This document shows, one piece after another, positions 5,313 to 28,821 of a DNA stretch of 32,015 nucleotides. The position numbers and the translations under genes are program-made. The stretch's first letter is position 1, and every line of letters starts with the position of its first letter. The DNA comes from an uncultured archaeon (GTDB lineage: Archaea; Aenigmatarchaeota; Aenigmatarchaeia; QMZP01; QMZT01). The stretch covers positions 2,935 through 34,949 of the forward strand of contig CAZKOV010000002.1 in NCBI GenBank assembly GCA_964554465.1, given 5' to 3'. The notes beneath the pieces are model-generated. The model saw only the letters and a program-made list of their open reading frames with translations. It was not told the DNA's origin and ran no database searches.

Positions 5313-5702
5313 ATGAGTAAGACCCGTATGACCAGCCAGAGGCTGAAGATATTGGAATATCTGAGAAAAGTAAAGACCCATCCTACTGCTGAGATGGTTC
5401 ATAAAGCCGTTTCAAAGGACCTTCCTGCAATCACCCTGGCGACGGTGTACAGGAACCTTAACATTCTTGCCTTACAAGGTAAGATACTGAAATTCGAGGT
5501 AAACAAGGAATACAGGTTTGACGGCGACATATGCTGCCACCAGCATTGTATATGCAGTAATTGCGGAAAGATAATCGATATATTCGATAAGAAAATTTCG
5601 GAAAATGCTTTGAAAAAGGTCGATAAAAAGAAATTCTATGCTGACACAGTCGGTATAATATTCTACGGAAAATGTACCGACTGCATGAAAGGAGGTAGAT
5701 AA
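5313..5702 (+). CDS. Fur family metalloregulator, PerR-like by context (129 aa)
   Basis: N-terminal wHTH (TSQRLKILEYLRKVKTHPTAEMVHKAV...LATVYRNLNILALQG). Two CxxC pairs (CSNCGK, CTDC) form the structural Zn site. It leads an oxidative-stress operon. Confidence 0.85.
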   Translation: MSKTRMTSQRLKILEYLRKVKTHPTAEMVHKAVSKDLPAITLATVYRNLNILALQGKILKFEVNKEYRFDGDICCHQHCICSNCGKIIDIFDKKISENALKKVDKKKFYADTVGIIFYGKCTDCMKGGR

Positions 5703-5703
5703 A

Positions 5704-6219
5704 ATGGTAAAGTTATGGAGATGCGAGATATGCGGAGATCCGTACATTGGTGACGAAGCTCCCGCCAACTGTCCTTTTTGCGGTGCAAAAAGAAAATATA
5801 TAAAGGAATTCAACGACGCGGATGTTAACTTTGACGTGGAGCTTAATGAAAAGGATAAAGCAAATGCCGAGAGGGCTCTGCAGGTGGAGATAAGCAATGC
5901 AGCGTTCTATTTCTGTGCTGCGGAAAAAGTCAAGGAACTCGAAGGACAGAAAATGTTCAAAGCCCTTGGAAAGGTTGAGGCGGAACATGCATCCGTCTGG
6001 AAGAAGATATTGAAACTGGATTCGATTCCAAAGGGAACCGATACGTGTTCTGTTGAATATAAAGAAGATCTCGAAGATTCCCATGCAAGGGAAACGAGAG
6101 CGATAAACTTCTATAAACAGGCAGCCGAGGAATCAAATAACGATAGAATCAAACAAATATTCGAGGCCTTTGTGGAAGTGGAGACAGATCACCTGAAATT
6201 ATCGGAGGAGAGGTTATGA
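5704..6219 (+). CDS. Reverse-type rubrerythrin family protein (N-terminal rubredoxin-like ribbon plus ferritin-like di-iron domain, 171 aa)
   Basis: CEICG...CPFCG at the N-terminus. Di-iron ligand pattern E / ExxH / E / ExxH (ALQVEISNAA, VEAEHASV, ARETRAINFY, VETDHLKL). GGAGGT SD upstream. Confidence 0.75.
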   Translation: MVKLWRCEICGDPYIGDEAPANCPFCGAKRKYIKEFNDADVNFDVELNEKDKANAERALQVEISNAAFYFCAAEKVKELEGQKMFKALGKVEAEHASVWKKILKLDSIPKGTDTCSVEYKEDLEDSHARETRAINFYKQAAEESNNDRIKQIFEAFVEVETDHLKLSEERL

Positions 6220-6947: not shown

Positions 6948-7367
6948 ATGAAAAAATACTTAAGCAGTCATATTAAGGCTAACATACTTTCGGTGTTGGT
7001 TGCTAATGAGGCGTGTGGATATACAATACGCAAGGAAATATCAAAAAAAGCTGATATCTGTCCTCTTCCATCTTGGGGTTCATTATACCCTGCATTGAAA
7101 GAGCTGGAAACGGAAGGATATGTAAAATCTCATAAAAAGGGTAAGAAAATCTTATATAAAATCAACGATAAAGGAAAGGAATATTTCTTTAATTTCATGA
7201 AAATGCATTATAAAGACATGTTAGATAAAGTTCCTGTACTTGAAAAATTACCTATAAAAGATGACGCTTTGCTGCTTTTTCATGCAGCTTACCTATTTGA
7301 GAATTATAAAGATAAAAAATATGCGAGGAAATTGGTAAAAGAATTTATTTCAAAACTTTCAGGTTGA
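6948..7367 (+). CDS. PadR family transcriptional regulator (139 aa)
   Basis: ILSVLVANEACGYTIRKEI...WGSLYPALKELETEGYVKS is the typical PadR wHTH pattern. It is the first gene of the ABC operon. Confidence 0.75.
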   Translation: MKKYLSSHIKANILSVLVANEACGYTIRKEISKKADICPLPSWGSLYPALKELETEGYVKSHKKGKKILYKINDKGKEYFFNFMKMHYKDMLDKVPVLEKLPIKDDALLLFHAAYLFENYKDKKYARKLVKEFISKLSG

Positions 7368-7371
7368 TGTT

Positions 7372-8187
7372 ATGCCAAAGAAAAATGATTTTATAATAGA
7401 ACTTAAGAACGTTGCAAGAATATATCAGATGGATGAAGTGGAGGTTCCGGCGCTAAGGAACGTTTCCCTCAAAGTCAAAAGAGGGGAATTTTTGTCTATC
7501 GTGGGTAAATCCGGTTCAGGGAAATCAACCCTCGTAAACCAAGTAGGATGTATAGATACTCCTACAAGGGGTGAGATTTATCTTGATGGAGAAAACATAG
7601 CTGATATGTCTGAAAGCGAACTTGCCCAGATCAGGGGAAGAAAAGTAGGCTTTATTTTCCAGACATTCAATCTGATGCCGACCATGACTGTTTATGAAAA
7701 TGTTTCAATGCCTCTTGTTTTTCAGGGAGTTTCATTAGAAGAAACAAAAAAGAGGATTGATAAGGTATTAGAACTGGTGCAACTCTCTAACAGAAGAGAT
7801 CACAAACCGGGAGAATTGTCAGGGGGTGAGAGGCAAAGAGTTGCTATCGGGAGAGCTCTTGCGAATAACCCGGAAGTTATTTTAGCCGATGAACCTACCG
7901 GTAATCTTGACAGCAAAACAGGGAAACAGATTATGGATTTCATTATTGATCTGAACCAAAACAACGATGTCACAATTATTATAGTCACGCATGATGAAGA
8001 TCTCGCAAAACTTGCGGAAAGAACTATAGTATTATTTGATGGTCTCATAGTTGATGAAAAAATAAACACAGAAAAGGACAGACAGGAAGCTGTCAAGAGG
8101 CTTGAAGATGAAATAAAAACAAAGGAAAAGTGGGAAAAGGAAATGAATAACAATAAGGATAATTCTAAGATTGAGGTGAGGAAATGA
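7372..8187 (+). CDS. ABC transporter ATP-binding protein, MacB/LolD subfamily, with K/E-rich C-terminal tail (271 aa)
   Basis: Walker A GKSGSGKST, Q-loop FIFQ, signature LSGGERQRV, Walker B ILADEPT, H-loop VTHD. The last ~45 aa are low-complexity K/E-rich. Confidence 0.9.
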   Translation: MPKKNDFIIELKNVARIYQMDEVEVPALRNVSLKVKRGEFLSIVGKSGSGKSTLVNQVGCIDTPTRGEIYLDGENIADMSESELAQIRGRKVGFIFQTFNLMPTMTVYENVSMPLVFQGVSLEETKKRIDKVLELVQLSNRRDHKPGELSGGERQRVAIGRALANNPEVILADEPTGNLDSKTGKQIMDFIIDLNQNNDVTIIIVTHDEDLAKLAERTIVLFDGLIVDEKINTEKDRQEAVKRLEDEIKTKEKWEKEMNNNKDNSKIEVRK

Positions 8188-9431
8188 AAAGAGAATTAGT
8201 TTTAGTGACGGTTTTAGCAGTATTGGTTTTGTCAATGACATTACAGGTGAATGCTGCTGAAGACCCGAGGATAAGTGTAAGTTTCATAAGCCAGACTCCG
8301 GATCCTGTGGAACCTGGGGATTATGTAGAACTCAGATGGAAAATAGATAATCTGGCTTCGAAAAGCAATGATTATACATTCGAACTTGATTACAATTACC
8401 CGTTTAGTCTTGACGCCGGTGAAACTGCCCAAAGGAGTGTGGGTTCTCTTACAGGATATCAGACCCTTACAGACGGGGCAATAATATATTGGAAGATGAG
8501 AGTAGCCGAAGACGCCGTCGAAGGTGATATGAACAAGATTCAGGTAAAATATTGGAGAACCTCAGAACCCGGTTTTGTCGTAAGTTCTGGTGAACAGATA
8601 ATAAGAATCCAATCAAGGCAGGGACTTGCCGAAATTGGTCAGGTTAAAATAACACCAGAAGAAGTTGAACTTGGAAAAATGTTCGACATGAAAATAGAAA
8701 TAAACAATAAAGGTACAGGATTTATCAATAATGTAAAAGTGAAAGTAGATACAACAGGAACTGGATTTACTCCGGTAGGCACTACAAACCAGAAAATAAT
8801 AAAAAGAATTTCCGGACAAAGTTCACAGGAGATGACTTTCAAATTCTTTGTGGATGCTAACACGGAAATAAATGTGAACCAGCTTCCTATAAACCTCACG
8901 TATTATGACAAATTCTCAACAGCATACACGGATTCCGCTATAGTAGGCGTTCCCGTGTATGCGAAGCCAGCATACCTGACGAACCTTGAAGACAGCAATA
9001 TTTTCACGGCAGGTAAGAATGGTGAAATAGTTGTTAGTGTATCAAACATAGGAAAAGATATGATGAACTTTGTCGTTCTTGAACTGGTTCAGACAGATGA
9101 CTATGAAGTCGTAGGCTCGTCAAAAACATATCTTGGGAATCTTGAAAGTGATGACTTTGAAACAGGACAGTTCGATATATTCGTGTATCCAACAGAAAAG
9201 GAGTCGGTTCCGTTGGCCTTCAATCTGCACTACAGAGACAGTTATGACAAGGTTTACAGCGAATCGTTCACTGTGGAGAACAAGCTCTATACTACAGAAA
9301 AGGCAACCGAAATAGGTTTAATACAACAGGTCGATTACACTTCCGGTGCGATATTCTGGGTTATAGTAATTGCATTGGTAGCAATATGGTGGTACAGGCG
9401 CAGATGCAAGAAAAAGAACAAGAAAAAATAA
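8184..9431 (+). CDS. Secreted, C-terminally TM-anchored beta-sandwich repeat protein (COG1361 / CARDB-like accessory of archaeal MacB-type ABC systems, 415 aa)
   Basis: Signal peptide (LAVLVLSMTLQVNA-AE). Repeated x-N-x-G motifs (IEINNKGTGFINNVKV, VVSVSNIGKDMMNFVV). C-terminal TM plus basic tail (IFWVIVIALVAIWWYRRRCKKKNKKK). GAGGTGA SD and ATGA overlap with the ATPase gene. Confidence 0.55.
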   Translation: MKRELVLVTVLAVLVLSMTLQVNAAEDPRISVSFISQTPDPVEPGDYVELRWKIDNLASKSNDYTFELDYNYPFSLDAGETAQRSVGSLTGYQTLTDGAIIYWKMRVAEDAVEGDMNKIQVKYWRTSEPGFVVSSGEQIIRIQSRQGLAEIGQVKITPEEVELGKMFDMKIEINNKGTGFINNVKVKVDTTGTGFTPVGTTNQKIIKRISGQSSQEMTFKFFVDANTEINVNQLPINLTYYDKFSTAYTDSAIVGVPVYAKPAYLTNLEDSNIFTAGKNGEIVVSVSNIGKDMMNFVVLELVQTDDYEVVGSSKTYLGNLESDDFETGQFDIFVYPTEKESVPLAFNLHYRDSYDKVYSESFTVENKLYTTEKATEIGLIQQVDYTSGAIFWVIVIALVAIWWYRRRCKKKNKKK

Positions 9432-9464
9432 TCCACCCTCTTCCTTTATTTATTAAAATATTAA

Positions 9465-10688
9465 GTGGTCGAATTGATAAAACCGAGATATATTAAAATG
9501 GGACTGAAGTCTATTAGAGAAAGAAGTATTCGTAGCTGGCTTACTATTTTTGGTATAGTCATTTCCATTGCAGTCATTCTTACTTTATTGTCTTTGTCAG
9601 CAGGAGTCACTTATGCCGTAGAAGAGATGTTTGATGAATTTGGTAGGAACCGTATATTTGTCATTAGTGGGGGAGGCATGCAGGAAATGATGGGAGGATC
9701 ATTTCAGAATGGAATATCGAAAAAAGATATTGAAGCTATCGAATCTTTACCACAATTTAGATTTGTAGTGCCTGCTGTGGCAATACAGGCACAGAAAGTC
9801 GAATATGGGGGAACAGAATTATATCTCATGGTACAGGCATTTCCAAGTGATAACGCTGATATGGTAAATGAAGAATATAATATGAACGAATATGTAATCG
9901 AGGGCCGGCCATTTCAGGAAGACGAAAGAGGAGTCGTTGTGTTGGGATATAAAGTCGCAAAAAACACAGATGATTTCTTTGGTAAACCCATAGCATTGAA
10001 AAATTCAATATACGTCAACGATCGCAAGTTCCGTGTGATTGGCGTTATAAAAGAGTTCGGGAGTCCAGATGATAATTCTATTATGATACCCTTAGAGGAT
10101 GCAGAGGAGATTCTTGATCTGGGCGGTCAATATACAATGGTAGATGCTATAGTAAAGGACGGTGTCGATATCGATGTCGCTGAAGAAAGGCTTGTAAGAC
10201 TGCTTGAGCGGAGAAAGGGCGAGGACACGTTCACGGTTATGACTCCAGATTCCATAATAAGACAGTTCAATGATATGATATTTCTTGTGCAGGGCTTTCT
10301 TCTTGCAATCGCTTCGATAAGCCTTATTGTGGGTGCGGTCGGTATTGCAAATAATATGTTCACATCAGTTCTGGAACGGGAAAAAGAGATAGGCATCATG
10401 AAATCAGTGGGCGCCACAAATCACGATATCCTTCAGATTTTCCTTATTGAAAGCGGGTTGATAGGTTTTTTTGGTGGACTTGCGGGTGTCATCCTAGGTT
10501 CAGTTTTATCACTGATAATTGGAGAGATAGCCGCTGCCATGGGTTATGCTATGCTAAAAATATTAATATCACCCATCAACGTTATCGGTGTACTAGCATT
10601 CGCATTTTTTGTCGGCATGATATCGGGTTTAATACCCGCTTGGTCTGCATCAAGAAAGAAGATTATTGATACTTTGAGGGAGCACTAA
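9465..10688 (+). CDS. ABC transporter permease, FtsX/MacB type (407 aa; GTG at 9465 or ATG at 9498)
   Basis: N-terminal TM (RSWLTIFGIVISIAVIL), a large extracytoplasmic domain, and a C-terminal FtsX block (REKEIGIMKSVGATNHDILQIFLIES plus 3 TM). Confidence 0.85.
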   Translation: MVELIKPRYIKMGLKSIRERSIRSWLTIFGIVISIAVILTLLSLSAGVTYAVEEMFDEFGRNRIFVISGGGMQEMMGGSFQNGISKKDIEAIESLPQFRFVVPAVAIQAQKVEYGGTELYLMVQAFPSDNADMVNEEYNMNEYVIEGRPFQEDERGVVVLGYKVAKNTDDFFGKPIALKNSIYVNDRKFRVIGVIKEFGSPDDNSIMIPLEDAEEILDLGGQYTMVDAIVKDGVDIDVAEERLVRLLERRKGEDTFTVMTPDSIIRQFNDMIFLVQGFLLAIASISLIVGAVGIANNMFTSVLEREKEIGIMKSVGATNHDILQIFLIESGLIGFFGGLAGVILGSVLSLIIGEIAAAMGYAMLKILISPINVIGVLAFAFFVGMISGLIPAWSASRKKIIDTLREH

Positions 10689-11890
10689 TGGATCAACGTT
10701 TAATTAGAATGATCTGGGTAAGGTTCAGAGAAAGAAAACTTAGGTCTAGCCTCACGGTTCTTGGCATTTTAATAGGTATAACTGCACTAGTAGGTCTGAT
10801 ACTCCTCAGTTCCGGTCTCAAGGAAGGTGTCACCAAGCAGCTTGATGTGTTCGGTGCCGATGAGATACTTCTTTCTGCTAAATCGAATATAGGCTTCCAG
10901 GGTCCTTCTGGTTACGGTACCCTTACAACGGATGACGTAAGAACTCTGGACGCTATACCTCAAATACTGTCTGTTGACAGTCTGCTTCAGAGCAATATGG
11001 AAGTTCGATACGGACGTGAAAAGGTGCGTCTGTCAATAAGCGGTGTGGGTAATGATGCAGGAGACACCGACAGAACCGCAGAAGAGTATTTTGATCAGGA
11101 TATTCTTGCAGGGAGATATATGGAAGATTCTGATAGGTATGTTGCAAACATAGGTTATAGAATTGCATATGAGACTTTCGATAAAGATGTGTTGGTTGGA
11201 ACTAGTCTCGAAATAGGCGGAGATAAATACAGGGTCATTGGTATATTTGAAGAAGAAGGAGATATATCATCCGACAATATAATATATGTTCCCATAGAGT
11301 CGTTAAGAGATACAGTAGAAGATTCTAAAGCCATAACAGCGCTGATTGCAAAAATAGCTCCCGGAACAGATATAGATATGATGGTTGAACGTGTCAAATC
11401 TAAACTGGAAAGGAAGAGAGGAAGGGATGATATTGCAGTAACGACCCCGAAACAGATTAAAGAGCAGATAAACAGTCTTATTGGAGTTATAGATTTTGTT
11501 GTTATCGCAATTGCTTTGATAAGTTTATTCGTAGGAGCGCTCGGCATAATGAACTCGATGTACACAGCTGTTCTTCAGCGGGTGAGGGAGATAGGTATAA
11601 TGAAAGCAGTCGGTGCCAAAAACTCTCAGATATTAACATTGTTCCTCATTGAAAGTGCATTCCTTGGTTTTTTTGGAGGGGTGTTGGGGGTAATATTAGG
11701 ATTCATACTCGCATTTGGATTTATCGCAGTAATTAACACCTTTGGATTCATCAAGTTAGTGTTAGAGCCGGATCTTGTCCTTTTCGTTGGAGCTGTTGCC
11801 TTTAGTACAATATTAGGCATACTTTCTGGTTTCCTTCCGGCAGTCAGAGCATCAAAATTAAAGATAGTCGATGCACTGAGATATGAATAA
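10688..11890 (+). CDS. Second ABC transporter permease, FtsX/MacB type (400 aa)
   Basis: Paralogue of the preceding gene (RVREIGIMKAVGAKNSQILTLFLIES). TAATG stop/start overlap. Confidence 0.85.
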   Translation: MDQRLIRMIWVRFRERKLRSSLTVLGILIGITALVGLILLSSGLKEGVTKQLDVFGADEILLSAKSNIGFQGPSGYGTLTTDDVRTLDAIPQILSVDSLLQSNMEVRYGREKVRLSISGVGNDAGDTDRTAEEYFDQDILAGRYMEDSDRYVANIGYRIAYETFDKDVLVGTSLEIGGDKYRVIGIFEEEGDISSDNIIYVPIESLRDTVEDSKAITALIAKIAPGTDIDMMVERVKSKLERKRGRDDIAVTTPKQIKEQINSLIGVIDFVVIAIALISLFVGALGIMNSMYTAVLQRVREIGIMKAVGAKNSQILTLFLIESAFLGFFGGVLGVILGFILAFGFIAVINTFGFIKLVLEPDLVLFVGAVAFSTILGILSGFLPAVRASKLKIVDALRYE

Positions 11891-16091: not shown

Positions 16092-16502
16092 TTATAACTC
16101 ATTTCCCAGAACTACTTCATTATCAGCATTCCATGCGGGTTCTACTATACACAAAAAGACTAGATCTTTATCTCCTGTGTTCTTTATTCTCTGGACAGAA
16201 TCGGGTGGGATATGTATTGCATCTCCAGATCCGACTTCTTTTGTTTCATCATCGATATACATCAGTCCGCTTCCTTCAAGAATGTAATAAACCTCTGAAG
16301 ATTGTTTCAGTTTATGTCTGTGCGTGATTTCTCCCGGCTTTACGGTTGCTTTTGCGAGGCTGTATCCTACCAGATTATCTTTCTTTCCAATTAATTCCCT
16401 CAAAATACAGTTGTCACCAGCAACAATTTCTTCACAATCTTTCAGGTTTCTGACAAACATAATATCACCTACTTCAATATCTTCTGCGTTTCGCTGTACC
16501 AC
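16092..16502 (-). CDS. Cupin domain protein (136 aa; alternative ATG at 16460 removes the overlap with ogg)
   Basis: Cupin motifs PGEITHRHKLKQSSEVYYILEGSG and GDAIHIPPDSVQRIKNTG. Confidence 0.7.
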   Translation of the reverse strand: MVQRNAEDIEVGDIMFVRNLKDCEEIVAGDNCILRELIGKKDNLVGYSLAKATVKPGEITHRHKLKQSSEVYYILEGSGLMYIDDETKEVGSGDAIHIPPDSVQRIKNTGDKDLVFLCIVEPAWNADNEVVLGNEL

Positions 16503-17092
16503 AGATAAAAATCAAGTTCTCCCTGACTCAGTCCTGTCTTTTTTGCGATCTTTCCGAGAAGTCCTTCTATTTCCAGATATTTCTTCTTGGATATCGTTTT
16601 GGGTCTTTCTATCAGGCCGTAATCAACCAGAACATCGATGATATGGAAATCTATTATTGCGAAGTTCTCATAACCGATGTTCCGGAGGAAATGGCTGGCC
16701 TCCTTGTAGCCGAGACCCTTTATGTTCTTAACTATCCAGTCTCTTAGCTCATTTCCATCCTTCGAGTCTATCAATTCTTTCAGGAAATCCCCGTATTTCC
16801 TGTTGCAGGCGATGTAATTGGCACGGGTGTTGGGAAAGCGATGACCAAGTTCTTTCAGTTTTTTTGCAAGCTTCTTTTCCTCCAGATTCAAAAAACAGTC
16901 ACCCATTTTTTCTTCTATTTCCATAGCGCGTTTTGCATCGAAATTGGCAGTCATTATACAGAAACACATCTGCTTGAATATTTCATGACTCGGTTTCTTT
17001 CTATTTTCCCTGAATTGTTTCATTTTTAAGTCTACAATATCTTTTACTTCGCTGTTCTTCAGTTTTTCAACTAATTCTATTAATTTTTCCAT
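16469..17092 (-). CDS. ogg: Archaeal-type 8-oxoguanine DNA glycosylase/AP lyase (Ogg2 class, HhH-GPD, 207 aa)
   Basis: HhH plus catalytic Asp region (IKGLGYKEASHFLRNIGYENFAIIDFHI). The size matches the short archaeal Ogg class. AGGGGA SD; the start lies 13 nt after the rubrerythrin stop. Confidence 0.8.
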   Translation of the reverse strand: MEKLIELVEKLKNSEVKDIVDLKMKQFRENRKKPSHEIFKQMCFCIMTANFDAKRAMEIEEKMGDCFLNLEEKKLAKKLKELGHRFPNTRANYIACNRKYGDFLKELIDSKDGNELRDWIVKNIKGLGYKEASHFLRNIGYENFAIIDFHIIDVLVDYGLIERPKTISKKKYLEIEGLLGKIAKKTGLSQGELDFYLWYSETQKILK

Positions 17093-17105
17093 GATTCCCC
17101 TTTAT

Positions 17106-17693
17106 TTAGTAATTCTCACATTTTATCTGGAAATAGCTTTTAGGATGGCTGCAAGAAGGACAGCTTTCCGGCGGCTCGCTTCCGTCGTGTATATAGCCGC
17201 ATTTCATGCACATCCAGTATCTTTTGTCCGGTTTCTTGAACACCGTTTTGTTTTCCAGAACTTCGAGGAGTTTTGTGTACCTTTCTTCATGGTGCTCTTC
17301 AGCCTTTGCAATGGCCCTTATTCTTGCAGCAATGGCAGAGAAGCCTTCGTCTGCAGCTGTTTTTGCGAATTCCGGATAAAGGCCGCTGTTTTCTTCATGC
17401 TCTCCTTTTATTGCTGCTATGAGGTTGGCTTTCGTGTCCCCGATAGTTATAACGGCTGACGTGTCAACCATAATATTTTCGATGTCTTCTGTTTCCTCTT
17501 TCTTTGCTTCCTGAAGCATCCTGAAAAACCATTTCGCGTGCTCTCTCTCGTTTTCTGCCGTGAGAAGGAATATCTCCGCAATCTGCATGAATCCTTCCTT
17601 CTCGGCAATTCTTGCGTACATCGTGTACCTGTTCCTTGCCTGGGATTCCCCCACAAAAGCCTTGGTTAAATTTTCAACTGTCTCCAACATCAT
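17106..17693 (-). CDS. rbr: Rubrerythrin (di-iron domain plus C-terminal rubredoxin domain, 195 aa)
   Basis: FVGESQARNRYTMYA, ENEREHAKWF, AKAEEHHEERY and C-terminal CMKCGY...CPSCSHP. AAGGTGG SD. Confidence 0.9.
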   Translation of the reverse strand: MMLETVENLTKAFVGESQARNRYTMYARIAEKEGFMQIAEIFLLTAENEREHAKWFFRMLQEAKKEETEDIENIMVDTSAVITIGDTKANLIAAIKGEHEENSGLYPEFAKTAADEGFSAIAARIRAIAKAEEHHEERYTKLLEVLENKTVFKKPDKRYWMCMKCGYIHDGSEPPESCPSCSHPKSYFQIKCENY

Positions 17694-19979: not shown

Positions 19980-20930
19980 TTAGGGCAGCGGTCTGTATTT
20001 TGTTATTTCTAAACCCCACTCTATAAGAAGAACGAAACAGACGAGCAAAAGCAGGTAGAAGGTCGGGCTTATCTCGGCTTCCTTGTATTTTATTCCCGCC
20101 TTGAGGGCATCGCTAAGCGCCGTCTCGTTGGAAACCACGAAATACATACCATCAGTGTCTTCTGCTATTAATTTAAGTGCATCTTCATCCAGTTCGGGGA
20201 AACGTGCAATTGTCTTATTGGAATCAGTCGAGTTGTCATAAACGGTTACGTTTTCCTGCTTTGTACCTATGCCTATGACTATTACTTTTATGTTGTTTTC
20301 CTTCAATGTTTTGAGCGAATCGTTAATTGGTGTTCCCATGTTATTTATACCGTCTGTTGTCAGTATTATCGTTCTGTTTCTGTTTGAATCGTAAAGAAGG
20401 GACGTACTTGTTATAAGTGCATCACCTATCGCTGTTCCTGCGGGCTGCTCAAGTCTTACAGCTTTCATTATTTTTTTGAGTTCATTCTGGTCTTCAATCA
20501 GCTTCGTTTTTACGTAAGCCTTACCTGAAAAGGTCACTATGCCTATATTTGTTTTTTGTATATCATCGAGCCACTCAAGATACACCTCTTTCGCGGCCTC
20601 CAGCCTGTTTGGAGTGAAATCAGGAGTGAGCATGGAAGAAGACGTGTCTATTGCCATGACAAAGTCTGTATTAGCTATGTACTGACCGTATATAAGCCTC
20701 GGGTCGGATATTGTTATGACTATCAGGGCAAAGACCATTATCCTCAATATAAGCGGGACAAGACTTACGGAAAATATCTTTCTTCCCATTGTCCTTTCAA
20801 GTGTCTCGTAATTGCCGAAAACCATTGTTCTTTTTTTTGAAAATTTCTTCGAAAGGAGAAATAATATTACAACAACGCCTATCAAAATCAGAAGCATGTT
20901 CATATATTCGTATGAAAATATCAGTCTCAT
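19980..20930 (-). CDS. Membrane-anchored von Willebrand factor A domain protein (BatA-like, 316 aa)
   Basis: Two N-terminal TM helices. MIDAS DxSxS in VMAIDTSSSM, TDGINN, and a C-terminal TM. Confidence 0.85.
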   Translation of the reverse strand: MRLIFSYEYMNMLLILIGVVVILFLLSKKFSKKRTMVFGNYETLERTMGRKIFSVSLVPLILRIMVFALIVITISDPRLIYGQYIANTDFVMAIDTSSSMLTPDFTPNRLEAAKEVYLEWLDDIQKTNIGIVTFSGKAYVKTKLIEDQNELKKIMKAVRLEQPAGTAIGDALITSTSLLYDSNRNRTIILTTDGINNMGTPINDSLKTLKENNIKVIVIGIGTKQENVTVYDNSTDSNKTIARFPELDEDALKLIAEDTDGMYFVVSNETALSDALKAGIKYKEAEISPTFYLLLLVCFVLLIEWGLEITKYRPLP

Positions 20931-20942
20931 TTAATATAACAC

Positions 20943-21935
20943 CTAGTATTCTTCACTGAGTTCTATGTATTTAACCAGTTGCTTGACAAACGTATCGGTA
21001 GTGTATATCCTGAAAAAACCGGCATGAGTGTTTCTGAATTCAGATTCAATCATGTTAACCTGTTCCGCTGCAAGTTTTTCGTATTTTAAACGTGCAACAT
21101 CCGAATCGATTGTCATTATCCTATCGCTGAATGGATCTTTCACTCTCATATATCCTATATTTTTGGGAAGAACCTCGTCCCTTATATCTTTTACCATAAT
21201 TCCTATAATGCGATCGATCTTGCCTCCCAGCATTTTTAATGCATTCTTCCATTCTTCTCCTTTTATGCCAAGGAAATCGGAAATAATGAATAAAATAGTC
21301 CTCGGATCAGCTATGTTAAGAACATAAGACAAAACATCTTCCAGATTGCATGGACCCTGCTGATTTTTTGGATCTACAATCAGCCGGAGAGATTTATAAT
21401 ATTGCGTGTTTTCGTTCGAAGGTTCAAGATTTTTAACGACGCCATCATTGAAAATAGTAAATCCCGTATTATCTCCTGTTTCCACAGCCGCATATACTAT
21501 TGCACCAGCAACTATGCTTGCATATTCGTATTTTGTTCTATTCTGTGTCCCAAAAAACATGGAACTTGATGAATCCAGAAGCACTTGTACGAACAAGTCC
21601 CTTTCCTCTTCATATTGCTTTACATATAAAGATTTTGAACGGAGAGATGCTTTCCAGTCAATTTTAGTTGCATCATCCTGACCGGGGACGTATTCCCGAA
21701 GGCCTGCAAACTCTATACCGCTTCCCTTGAAAAGAATCTGATATTTCAGCATGAACCTGAAAACATCAATGAGTTTTTTTACTTCCTTATCAATCTCGTT
21801 TATCAGATTTTTCATTACAAGATTCGGATCGTCTGTGCTTCCTTCGCCCCTTATCTTAGTACTAAGGGCTTGGGACAGTCTCCTATACTTGGTTTTTTCC
21901 TTTTTTAAATTCCCGGTTTCTTCTTTTTCACTCAT
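20943..21935 (-). CDS. DUF58 family protein (330 aa)
   Basis: REYVPGQDDATKIDWKASLRSKSLYVKQYEEERD and VLLDSSSSM are classical DUF58 signatures. ATGA overlap with the upstream moxR. Confidence 0.8.
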   Translation of the reverse strand: MSEKEETGNLKKEKTKYRRLSQALSTKIRGEGSTDDPNLVMKNLINEIDKEVKKLIDVFRFMLKYQILFKGSGIEFAGLREYVPGQDDATKIDWKASLRSKSLYVKQYEEERDLFVQVLLDSSSSMFFGTQNRTKYEYASIVAGAIVYAAVETGDNTGFTIFNDGVVKNLEPSNENTQYYKSLRLIVDPKNQQGPCNLEDVLSYVLNIADPRTILFIISDFLGIKGEEWKNALKMLGGKIDRIIGIMVKDIRDEVLPKNIGYMRVKDPFSDRIMTIDSDVARLKYEKLAAEQVNMIESEFRNTHAGFFRIYTTDTFVKQLVKYIELSEEY

Positions 21936-23173
21936 AAAACAGGAACCCTCTTCATTATTTCTTCAATTAAATCATCTGTGCTTATTTCTTTGGCCTTCCC
22001 TTCATAGTTAAGAATTAACCTGTGACGGAGAACTTCTTTTGCAACCGATTTTATATCTTCAGGAGTTACAAACACTCTTCCGTTTAGAAGTGCTGTTGCT
22101 TTTGCCGAGAGACCCAAAAATATGCTTGCTCTCGGGGAAGCTCCGTACTGTATGTATTTTGCTTCTTCGCCAAGTCCGTGTTCCTTCGGATTTCTTGTTG
22201 CATCAACTATGTTGACTATATATTCCTTTAACTCCTGAGAAAGGTGAATATACTTTACAATCTCCTGCATCTCAATTATCTCGTAAGGGGATATCACTTT
22301 ACGGATACCGTATTCTTCTATTGTTTTCATGTTGCTGTTCTGATCCATGACAAGAAATTCGTTATCTTCATCAGGGTAATCGACAAAAACTTTGAATAAG
22401 AAACGGTCTATTTGGGCCGCTGACAATGGATAGACACCACGCTGTTCAAGCGGGTTCTGGGTTGCCATCACGAAGAAAGGTTTTGGAAGATCGTAAGTTT
22501 TTCTTCCTATAGTGACCTGATTCTCTTGCATTGCCTGAAGCATCGCGGACTGGACTTTAGGTGGTGTTCTGTTAAGTTCGTCGGCCAGTATAACATTTGC
22601 AAAAATAGGTCCTTTCATGACATAGAAACCTTTAATTTTATCATAAACAGTGACACCTGTAATGTCTGTTGGCAGAAGATCGGGAGTAAACTGTATCCTG
22701 TTAAAAGAACTGTTTTGCATTGCCTCGTTCAAAAGCATTGCGAGAAGTGTTTTTGCAAGTCCGGGCACCGATTCCAATAAGACATGACCTCCTGAAACCA
22801 TGCATTTCAGTACGGAATCTATAACCGTATCCTGTCCTATTATACCCTTTTTTACTTCGTTTTTTATTGTTTCTATCTTTTGCTTGTATTTTTTCACACA
22901 ATCCAGGAGTTCTTCTTCTGTTGGAGCGTGCCTTTCATAATCAGCTTTTGCTGTAAATCCTTTAGTGTCTTCTGAAACATTATCTATAACGGTCGATTTA
23001 ATTCCTCTTTCTGTTTCAGTCGTTTCTTCCTTTTTTGCCGGACTACTTGTCTTTTTCTTCTTATGTTTCCTTGAAGCCGTTTTTTTAACTTTTACAAGCC
23101 TTTTTTTTACAGTTCTTTTTTTGACTGGTTTTCTCTTTGGTGCTGTCTTCCTTGCCTTCTTTTTAGTCGTCAT
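21932..23173 (-). CDS. moxR: MoxR-type AAA+ ATPase paralogue with ~60-aa polybasic N-terminal extension (within ~85 extra N-terminal residues) and deviant Walker A (413 aa)
   Basis: MoxR core (FTPDLLPTDITGVT, ADELNRTPPKVQSAMLQAMQE, FFVMATQNP). The P-loop reads SVPGLAKT instead of GxPGxGKT. The N-terminus is MTTKKKARKTAPKRKPVKKRTVKKRLVKVKKTASRKHKKKK. Confidence 0.9.
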   Translation of the reverse strand: MTTKKKARKTAPKRKPVKKRTVKKRLVKVKKTASRKHKKKKTSSPAKKEETTETERGIKSTVIDNVSEDTKGFTAKADYERHAPTEEELLDCVKKYKQKIETIKNEVKKGIIGQDTVIDSVLKCMVSGGHVLLESVPGLAKTLLAMLLNEAMQNSSFNRIQFTPDLLPTDITGVTVYDKIKGFYVMKGPIFANVILADELNRTPPKVQSAMLQAMQENQVTIGRKTYDLPKPFFVMATQNPLEQRGVYPLSAAQIDRFLFKVFVDYPDEDNEFLVMDQNSNMKTIEEYGIRKVISPYEIIEMQEIVKYIHLSQELKEYIVNIVDATRNPKEHGLGEEAKYIQYGASPRASIFLGLSAKATALLNGRVFVTPEDIKSVAKEVLRHRLILNYEGKAKEISTDDLIEEIMKRVPVL

Positions 23174-24162
23174 AACACCGGCACCTTCTTTATTATCTCA
23201 TCAACAATGTCGTCTGTTACTATCTCCTTCGCCTTGCCTTCATAGTTAAGAATTATCCTGTGACGGAGAACTTCTTTTGCAACAACCCTTATATCTTCTG
23301 GTTTGACGTATGTCCTTCCATCAAGAAGTGCTGTTGCACGTGATGCCAGCCCAATATATATTGTAGCCCTTGGCGAGCCTCCCCATTGCATATAATGGGC
23401 GTTGTCAAGTTCATACTTTTTGGGATCTCTTGTAGCCGAAACCATATGGAGAATGTATCTTTTGAGTTCGTCAGAAATGTAAATATTTTTTACTATCTGC
23501 TGAACCTCTAGTATTTCACTGAGGGAAATTGCCGGCTCAATTCCGTAATCATCAAGGCTTTTATTGTCTGCGTTGTTTTCTACAATTTCAATTTCATGCT
23601 CCTTGTTGGGATATGTTATAGTCCCCTTGAACAGAAAACGGTCAACCTGCGCCTCAGGCAAAGGATAAACGCCTTTAGTTTCTACAGGATTTTGTGTAGC
23701 CATGACGAAGAAAGGTTTAGGAAGATCGAATGTTTCCTTACCTATAGTGACCTGACGTTCCTGCATTGCCTGAAGCATTGAAGATTGGACTTTTGGTGGC
23801 GTCCTGTTTATCTCATCGCCTATTACTATATTCCCGAAAATGGGTCCCTTGACGATATAGAATTCACCTTTCTTCTCATCATAAATGGTGACGCCTGTTA
23901 TATCTGTTGGCAGGAGATCTGGAGTGAACTGTATTCTCTGGAAAACGACATCTTTGACGGTTTTTGCTAGAATAGTTACTATTAAAGTTTTCCCAACACC
24001 AGGAACACCTTCAACAAGAACGTGACCGTTGCATATTAAAGCTCTAGAAAGAGTATTAACAATTGCATCCTGTCCTACTATGGCCTTTTTTATCTCTTTT
24101 TTGATGTTTTTGAATTTTTGACTATATAATTCCACTTTATTTTCAAGCTCCAGATTATTCAT
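23170..24162 (-). CDS. moxR: MoxR-type AAA+ ATPase (330 aa)
   Basis: Canonical Walker A GVPGVGKT, Walker B IGDEINR, PPKVQSSMLQAMQERQVTIG and FFVMATQNP. Its own TATA-like element and a T-rich tract lie upstream (24163-24302). Confidence 0.9.
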   Translation of the reverse strand: MNNLELENKVELYSQKFKNIKKEIKKAIVGQDAIVNTLSRALICNGHVLVEGVPGVGKTLIVTILAKTVKDVVFQRIQFTPDLLPTDITGVTIYDEKKGEFYIVKGPIFGNIVIGDEINRTPPKVQSSMLQAMQERQVTIGKETFDLPKPFFVMATQNPVETKGVYPLPEAQVDRFLFKGTITYPNKEHEIEIVENNADNKSLDDYGIEPAISLSEILEVQQIVKNIYISDELKRYILHMVSATRDPKKYELDNAHYMQWGGSPRATIYIGLASRATALLDGRTYVKPEDIRVVAKEVLRHRIILNYEGKAKEIVTDDIVDEIIKKVPVL

Positions 24163-26447: not shown

Positions 26448-28037
26448 TCATTTGAAATCACTTATACGGAATTGCCTGGGTTTTTTCAGTTCCTTCTCCA
26501 ATTTCTCATCCTCAAAAACAGAATCCGTTTCCTGTTCCCCTCTTTTCATTCTGTGAAGAGTTCTTTTCATCACCTTTTCTTTTTTCCGGGAGGACCAGTA
26601 ATATCCCTCATCCCTTGTTCCTTTTGTTATTAAGAATATTACACGACCGACATCATGTCTTCCCACCCTTCCTCTTCTTTGTATAGAACGAATCTCGCTC
26701 GGAACCGGTTCATAAAATATTGCAAGGTCCATTGAGGGAATATCGAGTCCTTCTTCACCCACGGACGTAGCGACAATAGTATTATATTTGCCTTCCCTGA
26801 AATCTTTCAGTCTTGACAATTGTTCCTTCTGCGTCATACCTTCCTTCTGCCCGATGAATTCGACGGGTTTTACGCCATCTACTTTTTCGAGCAATTCGAC
26901 TATCTGTTTAACTGTACTCCTCAGATTAACAAAAATTATTATCTTTAATTCGGGATTTCCCCGGACAGCTGCCTCCACAAGCGATAACAGCTTGCCCATC
27001 TTCGGATGGTTGTATCCCTTTTCCAGCATTTCGTTTGTTATCTGCATCGCCCTGAGTATCTCGGCATCTTTTAAAATCATCTTTGATGCCCTGTTATTTT
27101 CTTCGGAACGTATCTTCTTCCAGTAGTCGGCAAGTGCTTTGACGCTCTGCGTTTCTATAAGGCTCAATGCATGGTCAAGTTTTATGGCCCTCGCGACAAG
27201 GAAGGACTGCCAGTATATTTTCTTTCCCTGCTTCGATTCACCGAATATTCTTCCCTGCATCGCGAGAAGATCCTTCTTGGTTACAAGGTTCAGGGGTTTT
27301 CTGAAACCTATTGCAGAAAGCTTGTAGAGGGAATTCCTGTATGATTTGCCGATTATGTCATGCAGTCTTTTGAAACTTGGCGGAAGTTCGACAACGACCC
27401 ATTCAAATTTCTTTTCCTTTGCCCATTCCTTTACATCAGCATCCTTTTCAGTTTTTATCTCGACCGCTTCTATTCCAAGATTCTTGCAGATTTCATCAAT
27501 CTTCTCTCTCGTTCCGCCGGGCGAAGCCGTAAGCGCCAGTATCTTCGGTTCTTCACACTGTTCAAAATATGTCATTGAAACAAAAGGATATGCGTATCCG
27601 CCGATAGCGTGATGTGCTTCATCAAAAACCGCCAGACTGAAATTCTTAAGTCCCAGACGTCCCGTTTTTATGTCATTCGAAATCGTTTGCGGCGTTGCAA
27701 AAATAATGTCATGTTCTTCGTAAAGAAGCCCTCTTTTTTTAGGGCTGATGTTTCCCGTAATGAATGCAAACCTGTCCTCTTCAACTTTCAGCTTGTTCAT
27801 GAAAGTCTCATAATGCTGGGCAACCAAAGGTTTCGTCGGCGCCATCACGAGTATCTTCTTGTCCGGTTTTTTCTCAAGCATTATTGCAACAAGCATTATC
27901 GCTATGGGGGTCTTTCCCATGCCTGTGGGCAGGACGCAGAGGACGTTCTTCTTGACGGCCTCAGCGAGCATCGTCTCCTGATAAACCCTTGACTGTAAAG
28001 CCTCTTCCTTTATGAGCGGATGATTGACAAAGGTCAT
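26448..28037 (-). CDS. Hef/FANCM/Mph1-like SF2 helicase (COG1111-type), no ERCC4 nuclease domain (529 aa)
   Basis: N-terminal ...RVYQETMLAEAVKKNVLCVLPTGMGKT, a DEAH box (VFDEAHHAIG), and helicase C motifs (ATSVGEEGLDIP, QRRGRVGR). Basic/acidic C-terminal tail. Confidence 0.85.
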   Translation of the reverse strand: MTFVNHPLIKEEALQSRVYQETMLAEAVKKNVLCVLPTGMGKTPIAIMLVAIMLEKKPDKKILVMAPTKPLVAQHYETFMNKLKVEEDRFAFITGNISPKKRGLLYEEHDIIFATPQTISNDIKTGRLGLKNFSLAVFDEAHHAIGGYAYPFVSMTYFEQCEEPKILALTASPGGTREKIDEICKNLGIEAVEIKTEKDADVKEWAKEKKFEWVVVELPPSFKRLHDIIGKSYRNSLYKLSAIGFRKPLNLVTKKDLLAMQGRIFGESKQGKKIYWQSFLVARAIKLDHALSLIETQSVKALADYWKKIRSEENNRASKMILKDAEILRAMQITNEMLEKGYNHPKMGKLLSLVEAAVRGNPELKIIIFVNLRSTVKQIVELLEKVDGVKPVEFIGQKEGMTQKEQLSRLKDFREGKYNTIVATSVGEEGLDIPSMDLAIFYEPVPSEIRSIQRRGRVGRHDVGRVIFLITKGTRDEGYYWSSRKKEKVMKRTLHRMKRGEQETDSVFEDEKLEKELKKPRQFRISDFK

Positions 28038-28092
28038 AATATGTAAATATATACATTCAATAAAAAACTGTCATATGCCCCTGAACAAACAC

Positions 28093-28100
28093 TTTAAAAA
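28093..28100 (+). promoter_or_regulatory. TATA-box candidate TTTAAAAA 26 nt upstream of the tRNA 5' end
   Basis: Position and composition fit an archaeal tRNA promoter. Confidence 0.4.
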
Positions 28101-28144
28101 TTAGTATATTAATACTATGGAATATGCCGAGGTGGCTCAGGGGT

Positions 28145-28170
28145 TATGTTCCGAATAAGGACGTACCTAA
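28145..28170 (+). other. tRNA intron 1 in the D loop (about 24-26 nt; junctions ambiguous by +/-2 nt)
   Basis: 33 nt lie between the D-stem strands, where 7-9 are expected. There is only a relaxed BHB (GGGT 28141-44 pairing with ACCT 28165-68; inner helix GTTC/GGAC). Confidence 0.5.
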
Positions 28171-28187
28171 AGAGCGCCAGACTCATG

Positions 28188-28306
28188 GAACCGAAAGGAC
28201 GTATACAAGATACGTCGAACTAGGAATTGAAATTAACTCTGCGAAAATACATTCATGAGTGATGATCGGAGCTAAAACTTCGAGATGACAAATAGGCGTT
28301 TGGGAC
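28188..28306 (+). other. tRNA intron 2 at canonical position 37/38 (119 nt)
   Basis: BHB motif: anticodon stem, then central helix CTCA 28182-85 / TGGG 28301-04, 3-nt bulges TGG (28186-88) and ACA (28305-07), and outer helix AAC/GTT. Contains a perfect hairpin GACGTAT-ACAAG-ATACGTC (28198-28216). Confidence 0.8.
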
Positions 28307-28328
28307 ATCTGGAGGTCGGGGGTTCAAA

Positions 28329-28394
28329 GGTCGGAGATGGTTCGCATGCACGAACAGAACTCAAATTGCCATTATCTGGGTTCAAGACTGAAAA
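28329..28394 (+). other. tRNA intron 3 in the T loop at position 59/60 (66 nt)
   Basis: BHB motif: T stem, then central helix TTCA 28323-26 / TGAA 28389-92, 3-nt bulges AAG (28327-29) and AAT (28393-95), and outer helix GTC 28330-32 / GAC 28386-88. Confidence 0.8.
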
Positions 28395-28409
28395 TCCCCC
28401 CCTCGGCAC

Positions 28410-28419
28410 TTTTATTTTT
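28410..28419 (+). terminator. Oligo-T tract TTTTATTTTT directly after the tRNA
   Basis: Archaeal RNA polymerase terminates at T-runs. The tract starts 2 nt after the discriminator base. Confidence 0.5.
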
Positions 28420-28437
28420 GGAATTTAATTTTTCTTC

Positions 28438-28821
28438 ATGCAACTGACAGCTTCGGGTATCATTATAAAGGATAAGAAAATTCTCCTTATGAAAAGAGGC
28501 GATGGTGCTCCAGACTGGCCTTCATGCTGGACTATGCCGGGTGGGAGAGGAGATCACGGAGAGGCTCCCGAAGAAATAGCAATCCGTGAAGTTAAAGAAG
28601 AGGTAAATCTGGATTTCGTTCCGAAGAAAGTTTTCAAGATAACTTATGCTGACGGAAAGAAAAAATATCGTTTCTTGGGTGAGTGGTCAGGAGAAATCAA
28701 GCCCCAGAAGAGGGAATCGTCTGAATGGGGCTGGTTTACATACGAAGAGACAAAAAATCTGAATTTTGCGTATGATTATAAGGATGTTGTTGAAAAGTTG
28801 CATGAAGAAGGACTGATTTAA
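28438..28821 (+). CDS. NUDIX hydrolase (MutT-like, 127 aa)
   Basis: Nudix box GGRGDHGEAPEEIAIREVKEEVNL. Confidence 0.85.
   Translation: MQLTASGIIIKDKKILLMKRGDGAPDWPSCWTMPGGRGDHGEAPEEIAIREVKEEVNLDFVPKKVFKITYADGKKKYRFLGEWSGEIKPQKRESSEWGWFTYEETKNLNFAYDYKDVVEKLHEEGLI

Follow-up and report, generated by a model that had tools for sequence, protein, structure and literature searches.

The window analyzed here, a 32,015-nt stretch of the archaeal contig CAZKOV010000002.1, carries at positions 28126-28408 of the plus strand a 283-nt segment with four perfect tRNA stems and the anticodon C34 A35 U36 (CAU). The segment lies in a 400-nt intergenic gap, with a minus-strand DEAD/DEAH helicase gene (26448-28037) on one side and a plus-strand NUDIX gene (28438-28821) on the other. 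An initial annotation of this DNA had proposed a tRNA(CAU) gene broken by three introns, in the D loop and at positions 37/38 and 59/60, and the stems it described and every coordinate it gave hold on direct reading. It is very probable that the locus is a functional elongator-type tRNA-Met(CAU) gene with three introns, belonging to an Aenigmarchaeota-like DPANN archaeon; the host was assigned from the flanking helicase, whose sequence has 87% identity to a protein from an Aenigmarchaeota metagenome-assembled genome. The stems below were read directly from the sequence.

28092..28102, plus strand: TATA-box-like element CTTTAAAAATT, with the end of its A-run 25 nt upstream of tRNA position 1
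28126-32 / 28401-07, plus strand: acceptor stem, GCCGAGG / CCTCGGC, then A73 at 28408
28135-38 / 28172-75, plus strand: D stem, GCTC / GAGC
28177-81 / 28308-12, plus strand: anticodon stem, CCAGA / TCTGG
28318-22 / 28396-400, plus strand: T stem, GGGGG / CCCCC
28126..28146, plus strand: exon 1a, tRNA positions 1 to ~20b (acceptor 5' strand, U8, G9, D-stem 5' strand, D loop AGGGGUUA)
28147..28170, plus strand: intron 1, in the D loop before A21, 24 nt by symmetric bulge-helix-bulge (BHB) cleavage, relaxed motif
28171..28187, plus strand: exon 1b (A21, D-stem 3' strand, G26, anticodon-stem 5' strand, C32 U33 C34 A35 U36 G37)
28188..28306, plus strand: intron 2, at the canonical 37/38 position, 119 nt, strict hBHBh' motif
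28307..28328, plus strand: exon 2 (A38, anticodon-stem 3' strand, variable loop AGGUC, T-stem 5' strand, U54 U55 C56 A57 A58 A59)
28329..28394, plus strand: intron 3, in the T loop at 59/60, 66 nt, strict hBHBh' motif
28395..28408, plus strand: exon 3 (U60, T-stem 3' strand, acceptor 3' strand, discriminator A73), CCA not encoded
28410..28419, plus strand: T-run TTTTATTTTT

By analogy with archaeal promoter architecture, the TATA-like element would serve as the promoter, and the T-run would likely be the transcription stop.

Splice motifs and the spliced product

A scan of positions 28100-28430 for the strict hBHBh' motif (outer helix of at least 5 bp, 3-nt bulge, 4-bp helix, 3-nt bulge and inner helix of at least 3 bp) returned exactly two matches, which delimit the introns at 28188-28306 and 28329-28394 and are the two motifs to which the initial annotation had pointed. 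Shuffled sequence gave a mean of 0.36 strict matches per region, with two or more in 5% of shuffles; loose BHB-like patterns, by comparison, are common, with 20 in the region and 18 ± 5 in shuffles. The motif of intron 2 consists of the central helix CUCA 28182-85 / UGGG 28301-04, the bulges UGG and ACA, and the inner helix AAC 28189-91 / GUU 28298-300, and that of intron 3 of the central helix UUCA 28323-26 / UGAA 28389-92, the bulges AAG and AAU, and the inner helix GUC 28330-32 / GAC 28386-88. In both introns the predicted cuts fall between the second and third bases of each 3-nt bulge. The decisive coincidence is that both strict motifs also restore 7-nt loops between perfect stems: as had been proposed, cutting out 28188-28306 yields the anticodon loop CUCAUGA, and cutting out 28329-28394 yields the T loop UUCAAAU.

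In silico removal of these two segments together with 24 to 26 nt of the D loop gives a product of 72-74 nt. ARAGORN, run on the region and on the spliced sequence as the initial annotation had suggested, found no tRNA in the unspliced DNA and called tRNA-Met(cat) in the spliced product (74 and 73 nt, with 24 or 25 nt removed from the D loop), with a cloverleaf of 7/4/5/5 bp in which 21 of 21 stem pairs are Watson-Crick; ARAGORN and homology here stand in for tRNA covariance-model scoring of custom sequences. The spliced tRNA carries U8, A14, G15/C48, G18G19, A21, U33, G53, U54-U55-C56, A58 and C61, and a spliced alignment of the gene to an intron-less homologue, which makes no use of the BHB motifs, places insertions of 25, 119 and 66 nt in the D loop, at position 37 and at about position 60, respectively. 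An ARAGORN model with two introns removed was wrong, the leftover insert having been forced into the anticodon loop. Archaeal initiator tRNAs have an A1-U72 pair and three G-C pairs at 29-31/39-41; initiator identity is ruled out here because the gene has G1-C72 and lacks a G29-G31 run (anticodon stem CCAGA/UCUGG).

On the unspliced DNA, Rfam gave no tRNA and nothing beyond chance-level matches, both at the gathering threshold and at E<=10, and a search of the window for the T arms of other tRNAs found none. Since ARAGORN and Rfam miss the unspliced gene, automatically annotated DPANN genomes can appear to be without an elongator tRNA-Met. Kaneta et al. could not predict complete tRNA sets for some DPANN and Asgard genomes and took this to reflect unidentified disrupted tRNA genes.

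Orthologues, the D-loop insert and position 37

Three orthologous loci were recovered: L128, on a metagenome contig from a more specific metagenome scan, and L140 (GCA_016932735.1, 'Ca. Aenigmarchaeota') and L141 (GCA_013151465.1), both reached via the helicase protein, which is 87% and 79% identical to that of the window, respectively. The NUDIX gene lies on one side of the tRNA in all three, and the helicase lies on the other, by called genes in L140 and L141 and by flank alignment in L128; an exact look-up of the NUDIX protein gave no match. Across these loci, identity to the window is 93-97% in the exons, 41-63% in introns 2 and 3, and 67-79% in the flanks. The intron lengths are given below, with a D-loop segment that includes one base that is possibly exonic.

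Window: D loop 25 nt, 37/38 119 nt, 59/60 66 nt
L128: D loop 25 nt, 37/38 115 nt, 59/60 66 nt
L140: D loop 0 nt, 37/38 96 nt, 59/60 38 nt
L141: D loop 29 nt, 37/38 137 nt, 59/60 70 nt

Exon 1a is almost unchanged across the four orthologues, and exon 1b, including G37, does not change in any of them. When the cloverleaf and BHB helices are counted over all four genes (alignment A1), pairing holds in 93% of cells, compared with 33-52% when the partners are slid. At 2-71, two genes have C-G and the other two have U-A (in L128 and L140, C2 changes to U together with G71 to A), and at 50-64 three genes have G-C and one has U-G. The central helix of the BHB is paired in 16/16 cells for intron 2 and in 14/16 for intron 3. 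The BHB nucleotides, the TATA-like box (C(T)TTAAAAA at the same distance upstream in L128, L140 and L141) and the T-run (kept in L128 and L140, T-rich in L141) are retained while the intron interiors diverge. The conserved exons, diverged introns and compensatory changes therefore indicate that the gene is under selection for its spliced product. The locus could alternatively be a decaying tRNA pseudogene with unrelated inserted sequence that is not expressed as a tRNA, which would fit the failure of tRNA finders and Rfam on the unspliced DNA and the atypical G37; however, the intact stem pairs, exons better conserved than the flanking genes, compensatory changes in two stems, and retention of the splice motifs, TATA-like box and T-run over diverging introns make such a pseudogene extremely unlikely.

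Several resemblances among the introns were also observed. The 37/38 and 59/60 introns of L141 (1169-1478, minus strand) share a segment of ~27 nt that contains a hairpin (GTTTCAATGTTCACGCATGCGAACTGT, GTTTCATGTTCGCGTATGCGAACTGT), which suggests copying between introns or a small mobile hairpin, and a similar hairpin, GGTTCGCATGCACGAAC, occurs at 28341-28357 in intron 3 of the window. The 3' part of the latter intron (28371-28388, ATCTGGGTTCAAGAC) resembles exon 2 (ATCTGGAGGTCGGGGGTTCAAAGGTC) minus its middle, in the manner of a degenerate sense copy of the 5' half of the T arm; the resemblance is not conserved in L128 and may be due to chance. A 9-mer, AAGGACGTA, is common to introns 1 and 2 (28158-28165 and 28196-28204) and is weakly unexpected, with a roughly estimated chance of ~0.15. 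A 6-bp match between GGCGUU at 28295-300 and the exon sequence AGCGCC at 28173-78 is not conserved in L128 and was rejected as chance.

The D-loop insert has a relaxed motif, as noted in the initial annotation. Beyond the D stem, A14 G15 face the AAA triplet at 28169-71, the helix GGGU 28141-44 / ACCU 28165-68 follows, UAU 28145-47 faces GU 28163-64, and a 4-bp helix (GUUC 28148-51 / GGAC 28159-62) closes a 7-nt loop, so that each of the two triplets is opposed by 2 unpaired nt. Removal of 24 nt (28147-28170) leaves AGGGGUUAA, removal of 25 nt (28146/47-28170/71) leaves AGGGGUUA, and removal of 26 nt (28145-28170) leaves AGGGGUA, the same as in L140; the three are equally compatible with a normal D loop, and sequence alone does not choose among them. 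L140 itself has both other introns and no D-loop insert, reading GCTCAGGGGTAGAGC with a 7-nt D loop, and the insert is therefore dispensable and was recently gained or lost.

The insert might instead be kept in the mature tRNA, as an extra hairpin within the variable portion of the D loop, or be cut elsewhere, leaving a gene with two BHB introns and an expansion. The relaxed motif, the 5' site that folds otherwise in L128 (a 2x1 internal loop) and in L141, and the acceptable D loop obtained with any of the three removals would all agree with such an arrangement. Nevertheless, the normal D loop of L140 speaks against it, as does the architecture of the insert, which keeps its 4-bp helix flanked by 3-nt triplets, with the AAA bulge abutting the D stem, and changes in ways that preserve pairing: the four substitutions in L128 fall in loops or turn G.U into A-U. 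No functional tRNA is known to have a 33-nt D loop, and we consider the alternative, retention or cutting elsewhere, improbable. There is precedent for relaxed HBh' introns that end before A21 in the D loop, and such introns undergo cleavage in vitro (PMC5829648).

A first genome scan with a 15-mer of the anticodon arm returned at least 120 loci, including many bacterial chance matches, and the survey of tRNA-Met introns covers genes that share the anticodon-arm sequence used in the scans. Among the matches listed (120 loci), none is syntenic with the window by tblastn, and many are tRNA(CAU) genes of DPANN archaea, Hadesarchaea and Bathyarchaeota; L008, L066, L100 and L102 have introns at 37/38 and in the T loop, and L017, L054 and L090 have introns in the D loop and at 37/38. 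The statement in the initial annotation that three introns in one gene are rare was overstated for this gene family, since elongator tRNA-Met genes with two or three introns at these sites recur in DPANN archaea, and genes with three introns, as well as the 59/60 and D-loop sites, have been published (PMC3239211, PMC5829648). Two further observations concern the surroundings of these genes. On the Undinarchaeota contig CAZJUS010000020.1 (L044, ~60-430 nt downstream of the pattern match), the last ~21 nt of an intron-less tRNA-Met, TTCGAATCCCGCCCTCGCCA, are repeated ~330 nt further on, a pattern such as is left by an element integrated at a tRNA 3' end. Directly upstream of the tRNA-Met genes of L126 and L132 is the 3' end of another tRNA (with a ...GGGCCCACCA-type acceptor), and the T loop of this tRNA likewise contains a short insert (e.g., GGTTCAAAGCCGCGAAATTCCCG), so that T-loop introns seem common in those lineages.

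The CAU anticodon is common to elongator tRNA-Met and to tRNA-Ile2, in which C34 is converted to agmatidine for AUA, and Bathyarchaeota genes that match the 5' half of this anticodon arm but have GGGCCC in the acceptor stem look Ile2-like. Among the matches listed, however, the window sequence is closest to genes with GCCGAGG or GCCGGGG acceptor stems and is unlike the GGGCCC type; the spliced sequence differs from L047 at only four places (G9, two D-loop bases and G37) and is also close to L070, both of which are GCCGAGG-acceptor, Met-type genes of Micrarchaeota. In addition, the element in intron 2 described below points to C34 as a target of ribose methylation, and elongator tRNA-Met is known to bear this modification (PMC6601510, PMC4033218). 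A tRNA-Ile2 product appears improbable on these grounds.

G37 is present in the window and in its three orthologues, and A37 in all 27 other distinct homologues surveyed, in agreement with the remark in the initial annotation that G37 is atypical beside CAU. Under the BHB geometry A37 cannot be obtained, because the 5' cut falls directly after a G and the 3' exon opens with A-UCUGG. The distribution of G37 and A37 therefore indicates that G37 is real and specific to the clade.

The three-intron reading of the initial annotation is borne out by the canonical spliced tRNA, the two strict BHB motifs, the conserved exons and the L140 allele that is free of the D-loop intron. What weighs against a functional elongator tRNA-Met gene of this kind is that elongator tRNA-Met is expected to have A37, the site of N6-threonylcarbamoyladenosine (t6A), where the window has G; that the D-loop motif departs from a clean BHB and varies at its 5' site from one orthologue to another; that intron 3 of L140 and L141 carries a U.U mismatch in its central BHB helix, and intron 3 of L128 and L141 has a weak inner helix; and that the 32-kb window, searched for endA and other RNA-processing genes, yielded no gene for an endonuclease or a ligase (rtcB).

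An antisense and kink-turn element in the 37/38 intron

Intron 2 contains a further feature.

28252..28288, plus strand: antisense/kink-turn (K-turn) element, inside intron 2

The antisense part, UUCAUGAGU (28252-60), forms a 9-bp duplex with A31-G37 and the first two intron bases, and is followed by the spacer G 28261, a D'-like box AUGA 28262-65, a 6-bp hairpin 28266-83, the bulge GAU 28284-86 and GA 28287-88. In the K-turn of a box C'/D' RNA, GA stands directly before the canonical stem, and the return strand continues into a 3-nt bulge and GA; in the guides of this class, the methylated position pairs with the fifth base upstream of the D or D' box. At the sequence level both the K-turn layout and the spacing are found here, with G28257, the fifth base upstream of the AUGA box, paired to C34. 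Left free to fold, the anticodon arm with the intron has the antisense pairing, and not the BHB, in its minimum-energy structure, at -27.8 kcal/mol versus -23.1 kcal/mol for the BHB-constrained fold. The intron base opposite position 37 is C in two of the four G37 genes (the window and L140) and in none of the A37 genes.

Elements arranged in this way (YRUGAGU, N, NNGA, stem, 3 nt, GA) occur in 23 of the 30 distinct intron-bearing tRNA-Met genes surveyed. The one-base spacer and the placement of C34 opposite the fifth base upstream of NUGA are the same in 23/23 elements, and the stem has at least 3 bp in 20 of the 23, two of the remaining three resembling K-loops. The mean element stem is 4.8 bp versus 1.0 in shuffled tails, and every stem sequence is different. 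Of the 16 full-motif matches in the 1.95 Mb scanned, 15 lie within tRNA-Met introns, just downstream of the anticodon, and among the orthologous introns the element is the only shared word of at least 11 nt. In relatives with short 37/38 introns (L138, L129, L131, L132, L136 and L137), the bulged strand of the K-turn, GGU-GA-GAA, shares bases with UGAG, the BHB strand paired to C32-A35; K-turn and splice motif are therefore mutually exclusive in these introns, a built-in structural switch.

These features lead us to favor, by a modest degree, the reading that intron 2 is a self-directed guide for ribose methylation of C34 (Cm34) whose pairing would compete with the BHB, such that methylation would precede splicing. 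In archaea, C/D ribonucleoproteins (RNPs) are known to place a ribose methyl group on C34 of elongator tRNA-Met (PMC6601510, PMC4033218). The main alternative is that the element is a folding or timing device that binds L7Ae and masks the anticodon loop, or stabilizes the long precursor until splicing, and guides no methylation. The single K-turn, the failure to find a box C/box D pair or an Rfam C/D match, and the overlap of strands in short introns, which would make the two folds mutually exclusive switches regardless of methylation, would suit such a device; in opposition to it, the spacing is exactly that of a D' guide in every one of the 23 elements, and the nucleotide so placed is the one known to be modified. 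We regard a folding device without guide function as somewhat unlikely.

Several results nevertheless weigh against guidance of methylation by intron 2. Efficient methylation by archaeal C/D RNPs is reported to need a C/D RNP paired with a C'/D' RNP, and a search of intron 2 for a full C/D RNA found neither a box C (RUGAUGA) ahead of the guide segment nor a box D (CUGA). No K-turn was found at the intron termini, so that the K-turn is single, and the Rfam C/D families gave no match even at E<=10. In the 32-kb window, no gene was found for L7Ae, Nop5 or fibrillarin. Two candidate boxes were rejected: GUGAUGA at 28259-65 as a box C, because GA directly before the hairpin stem is the geometry of a D'-type (non-bulged) strand and relatives have CUGA, UUGA or UCGA at this place, and CUGA at 28388-91 in intron 3 as a box D, because it is accounted for by the BHB strand UGAA.

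The favored reading of the gene suggests the following pathway. Transcription would start from the TATA-like box ~25 nt upstream and end at the T-run, and the 283-nt precursor would fold into a cloverleaf whose D, anticodon and T loops are each extended by an intron. Before removal of the 37/38 intron, its antisense would pair with A31-G37, excluding the BHB fold, and the adjacent single K-turn (NUGA, hairpin, GAU-GA) would recruit L7Ae, Nop5 and fibrillarin, with a spacing that puts C34 at the position of ribose methylation. Because the antisense pairing excludes the BHB fold, methylation would come first, followed by refolding and splicing. The junction pairs would then be presented in BHB motifs, of the strict form for introns 2 and 3 and of the relaxed form for intron 1, the archaeal splicing endonuclease would cut after the second base of each 3-nt bulge, an RNA ligase would join the four exons into a tRNA of 72-74 nt, and CCA would be added after splicing.

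More broadly, and tentatively, the canonical intron that elongator tRNA-Met genes carry in many DPANN archaea and in at least one Hadesarchaeon might be a self-targeting guide for Cm34 with a single K-turn (C'/D' only), whose pairing would exclude the BHB fold and place modification before splicing; the Aenigmarchaeota-like clade would have switched from A37 to G37 with the guide co-evolving, implying AUG decoding without t6A37. This generalization is a possibility to which we give rather less than even weight. No description of an intron-borne tRNA-Met guide or of a G37 clade was found in the literature searched, in which coverage of older work is incomplete, and these two parts may be new.

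Relation to known systems and significance

Elsewhere in the window, two tandem MoxR-type AAA+ ATPase genes (21932-23173 and 23170-24162) are followed by DUF58 and von Willebrand A genes on the minus strand (19980-24162), forming a MoxR-VWA-type cluster; a MoxR gene is also present at the edge of the syntenic locus L140. A set of the oxidative-stress type, comprising a Fur-family regulator, two rubrerythrin genes and an archaeal-type 8-oxoguanine glycosylase, lies at 5313-6219 and 16469-17693, and a PadR regulator with an ABC/MacB-FtsX exporter lies at 6948-11890, both unrelated to the tRNA.

Earlier work has documented archaeal tRNA genes that have between one and three introns, the use of the 59/60 site, and relaxed D-loop introns before A21, and some have been cleaved in vitro (PMC3239211, PMC5829648), including 59/60 introns by the ARMAN-2 endonuclease EndA (PMC3239211). 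The gene described here resembles the multi-intron tRNAs of Thermoproteales and of ARMAN-2/Micrarchaeum in having up to three introns, the 37/38 and 59/60 sites, strict and relaxed BHB motifs and a restored cloverleaf (PMC3239211), but differs from them in its Aenigmarchaeota-like host and in its long canonical intron of 119 nt with a K-turn/antisense element. Multi-intron tRNAs with these sites are thus already known, and the locus adds a well-supported further example. Its D-loop intron is like that of the Methanopyrus kandleri pre-tRNA-Glu(UUC), which ends just before A21, has a relaxed HBh' motif and is accompanied by a canonical 37/38 intron (PMC5829648), whereas here the tRNA and lineage are different, both triplets are present, each opposed by 2 nt, and the comparison is drawn from sequence only. 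The requirement for a broad-specificity endonuclease asserted in the initial annotation applies to the relaxed D-loop motif and not to the 37/38 and 59/60 motifs, which are strict. Kaneta et al. found increased tRNA gene disruption in DPANN lineages with an extra endonuclease loop (PMC5829648).

In archaea C34 of elongator tRNA-Met is methylated by trans-acting C/D guides, and the tRNA-Trp intron is the known case of a cis-acting one (PMC6601510, PMC4033218, PMC7994747). Like the euryarchaeal pre-tRNA-Trp intron, intron 2 is a 37/38 intron that pairs with its own anticodon loop across the exon-intron junction, sets C34 opposite the fifth base upstream of a D'-type box and has guide pairing and BHB fold as alternatives (PMC7994747, PMC4033218). 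However, the pre-tRNA-Trp intron is a complete C/D and C'/D' RNA with two guides (Cm34 and Um39), whereas the window has a single K-turn, one candidate guide and no box C or D, in a tRNA-Met. The nucleotide and tRNA that would be targeted are the same as those of the trans-acting C/D guides for Cm34, the haloarchaeal sR-tMet and a Pyrococcus small RNA (PMC6601510, PMC4033218, PMC7994747), but the latter are encoded by separate genes, in contrast to a guide-like element inside the intron of its own target.

These comparisons raise the questions of whether one K-turn is enough for methylation guidance, whether a structural switch orders modification before splicing and how a CAU tRNA functions with G37. 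The four orthologues constitute a comparative set for tuning detectors of multi-intron tRNAs, and the presence or absence of the D-loop intron among close relatives offers a natural example of an intron gained or lost recently. With this locus, three-intron tRNAs reach into an Aenigmarchaeota-like lineage, and this bears on the specificity of the splicing endonuclease.

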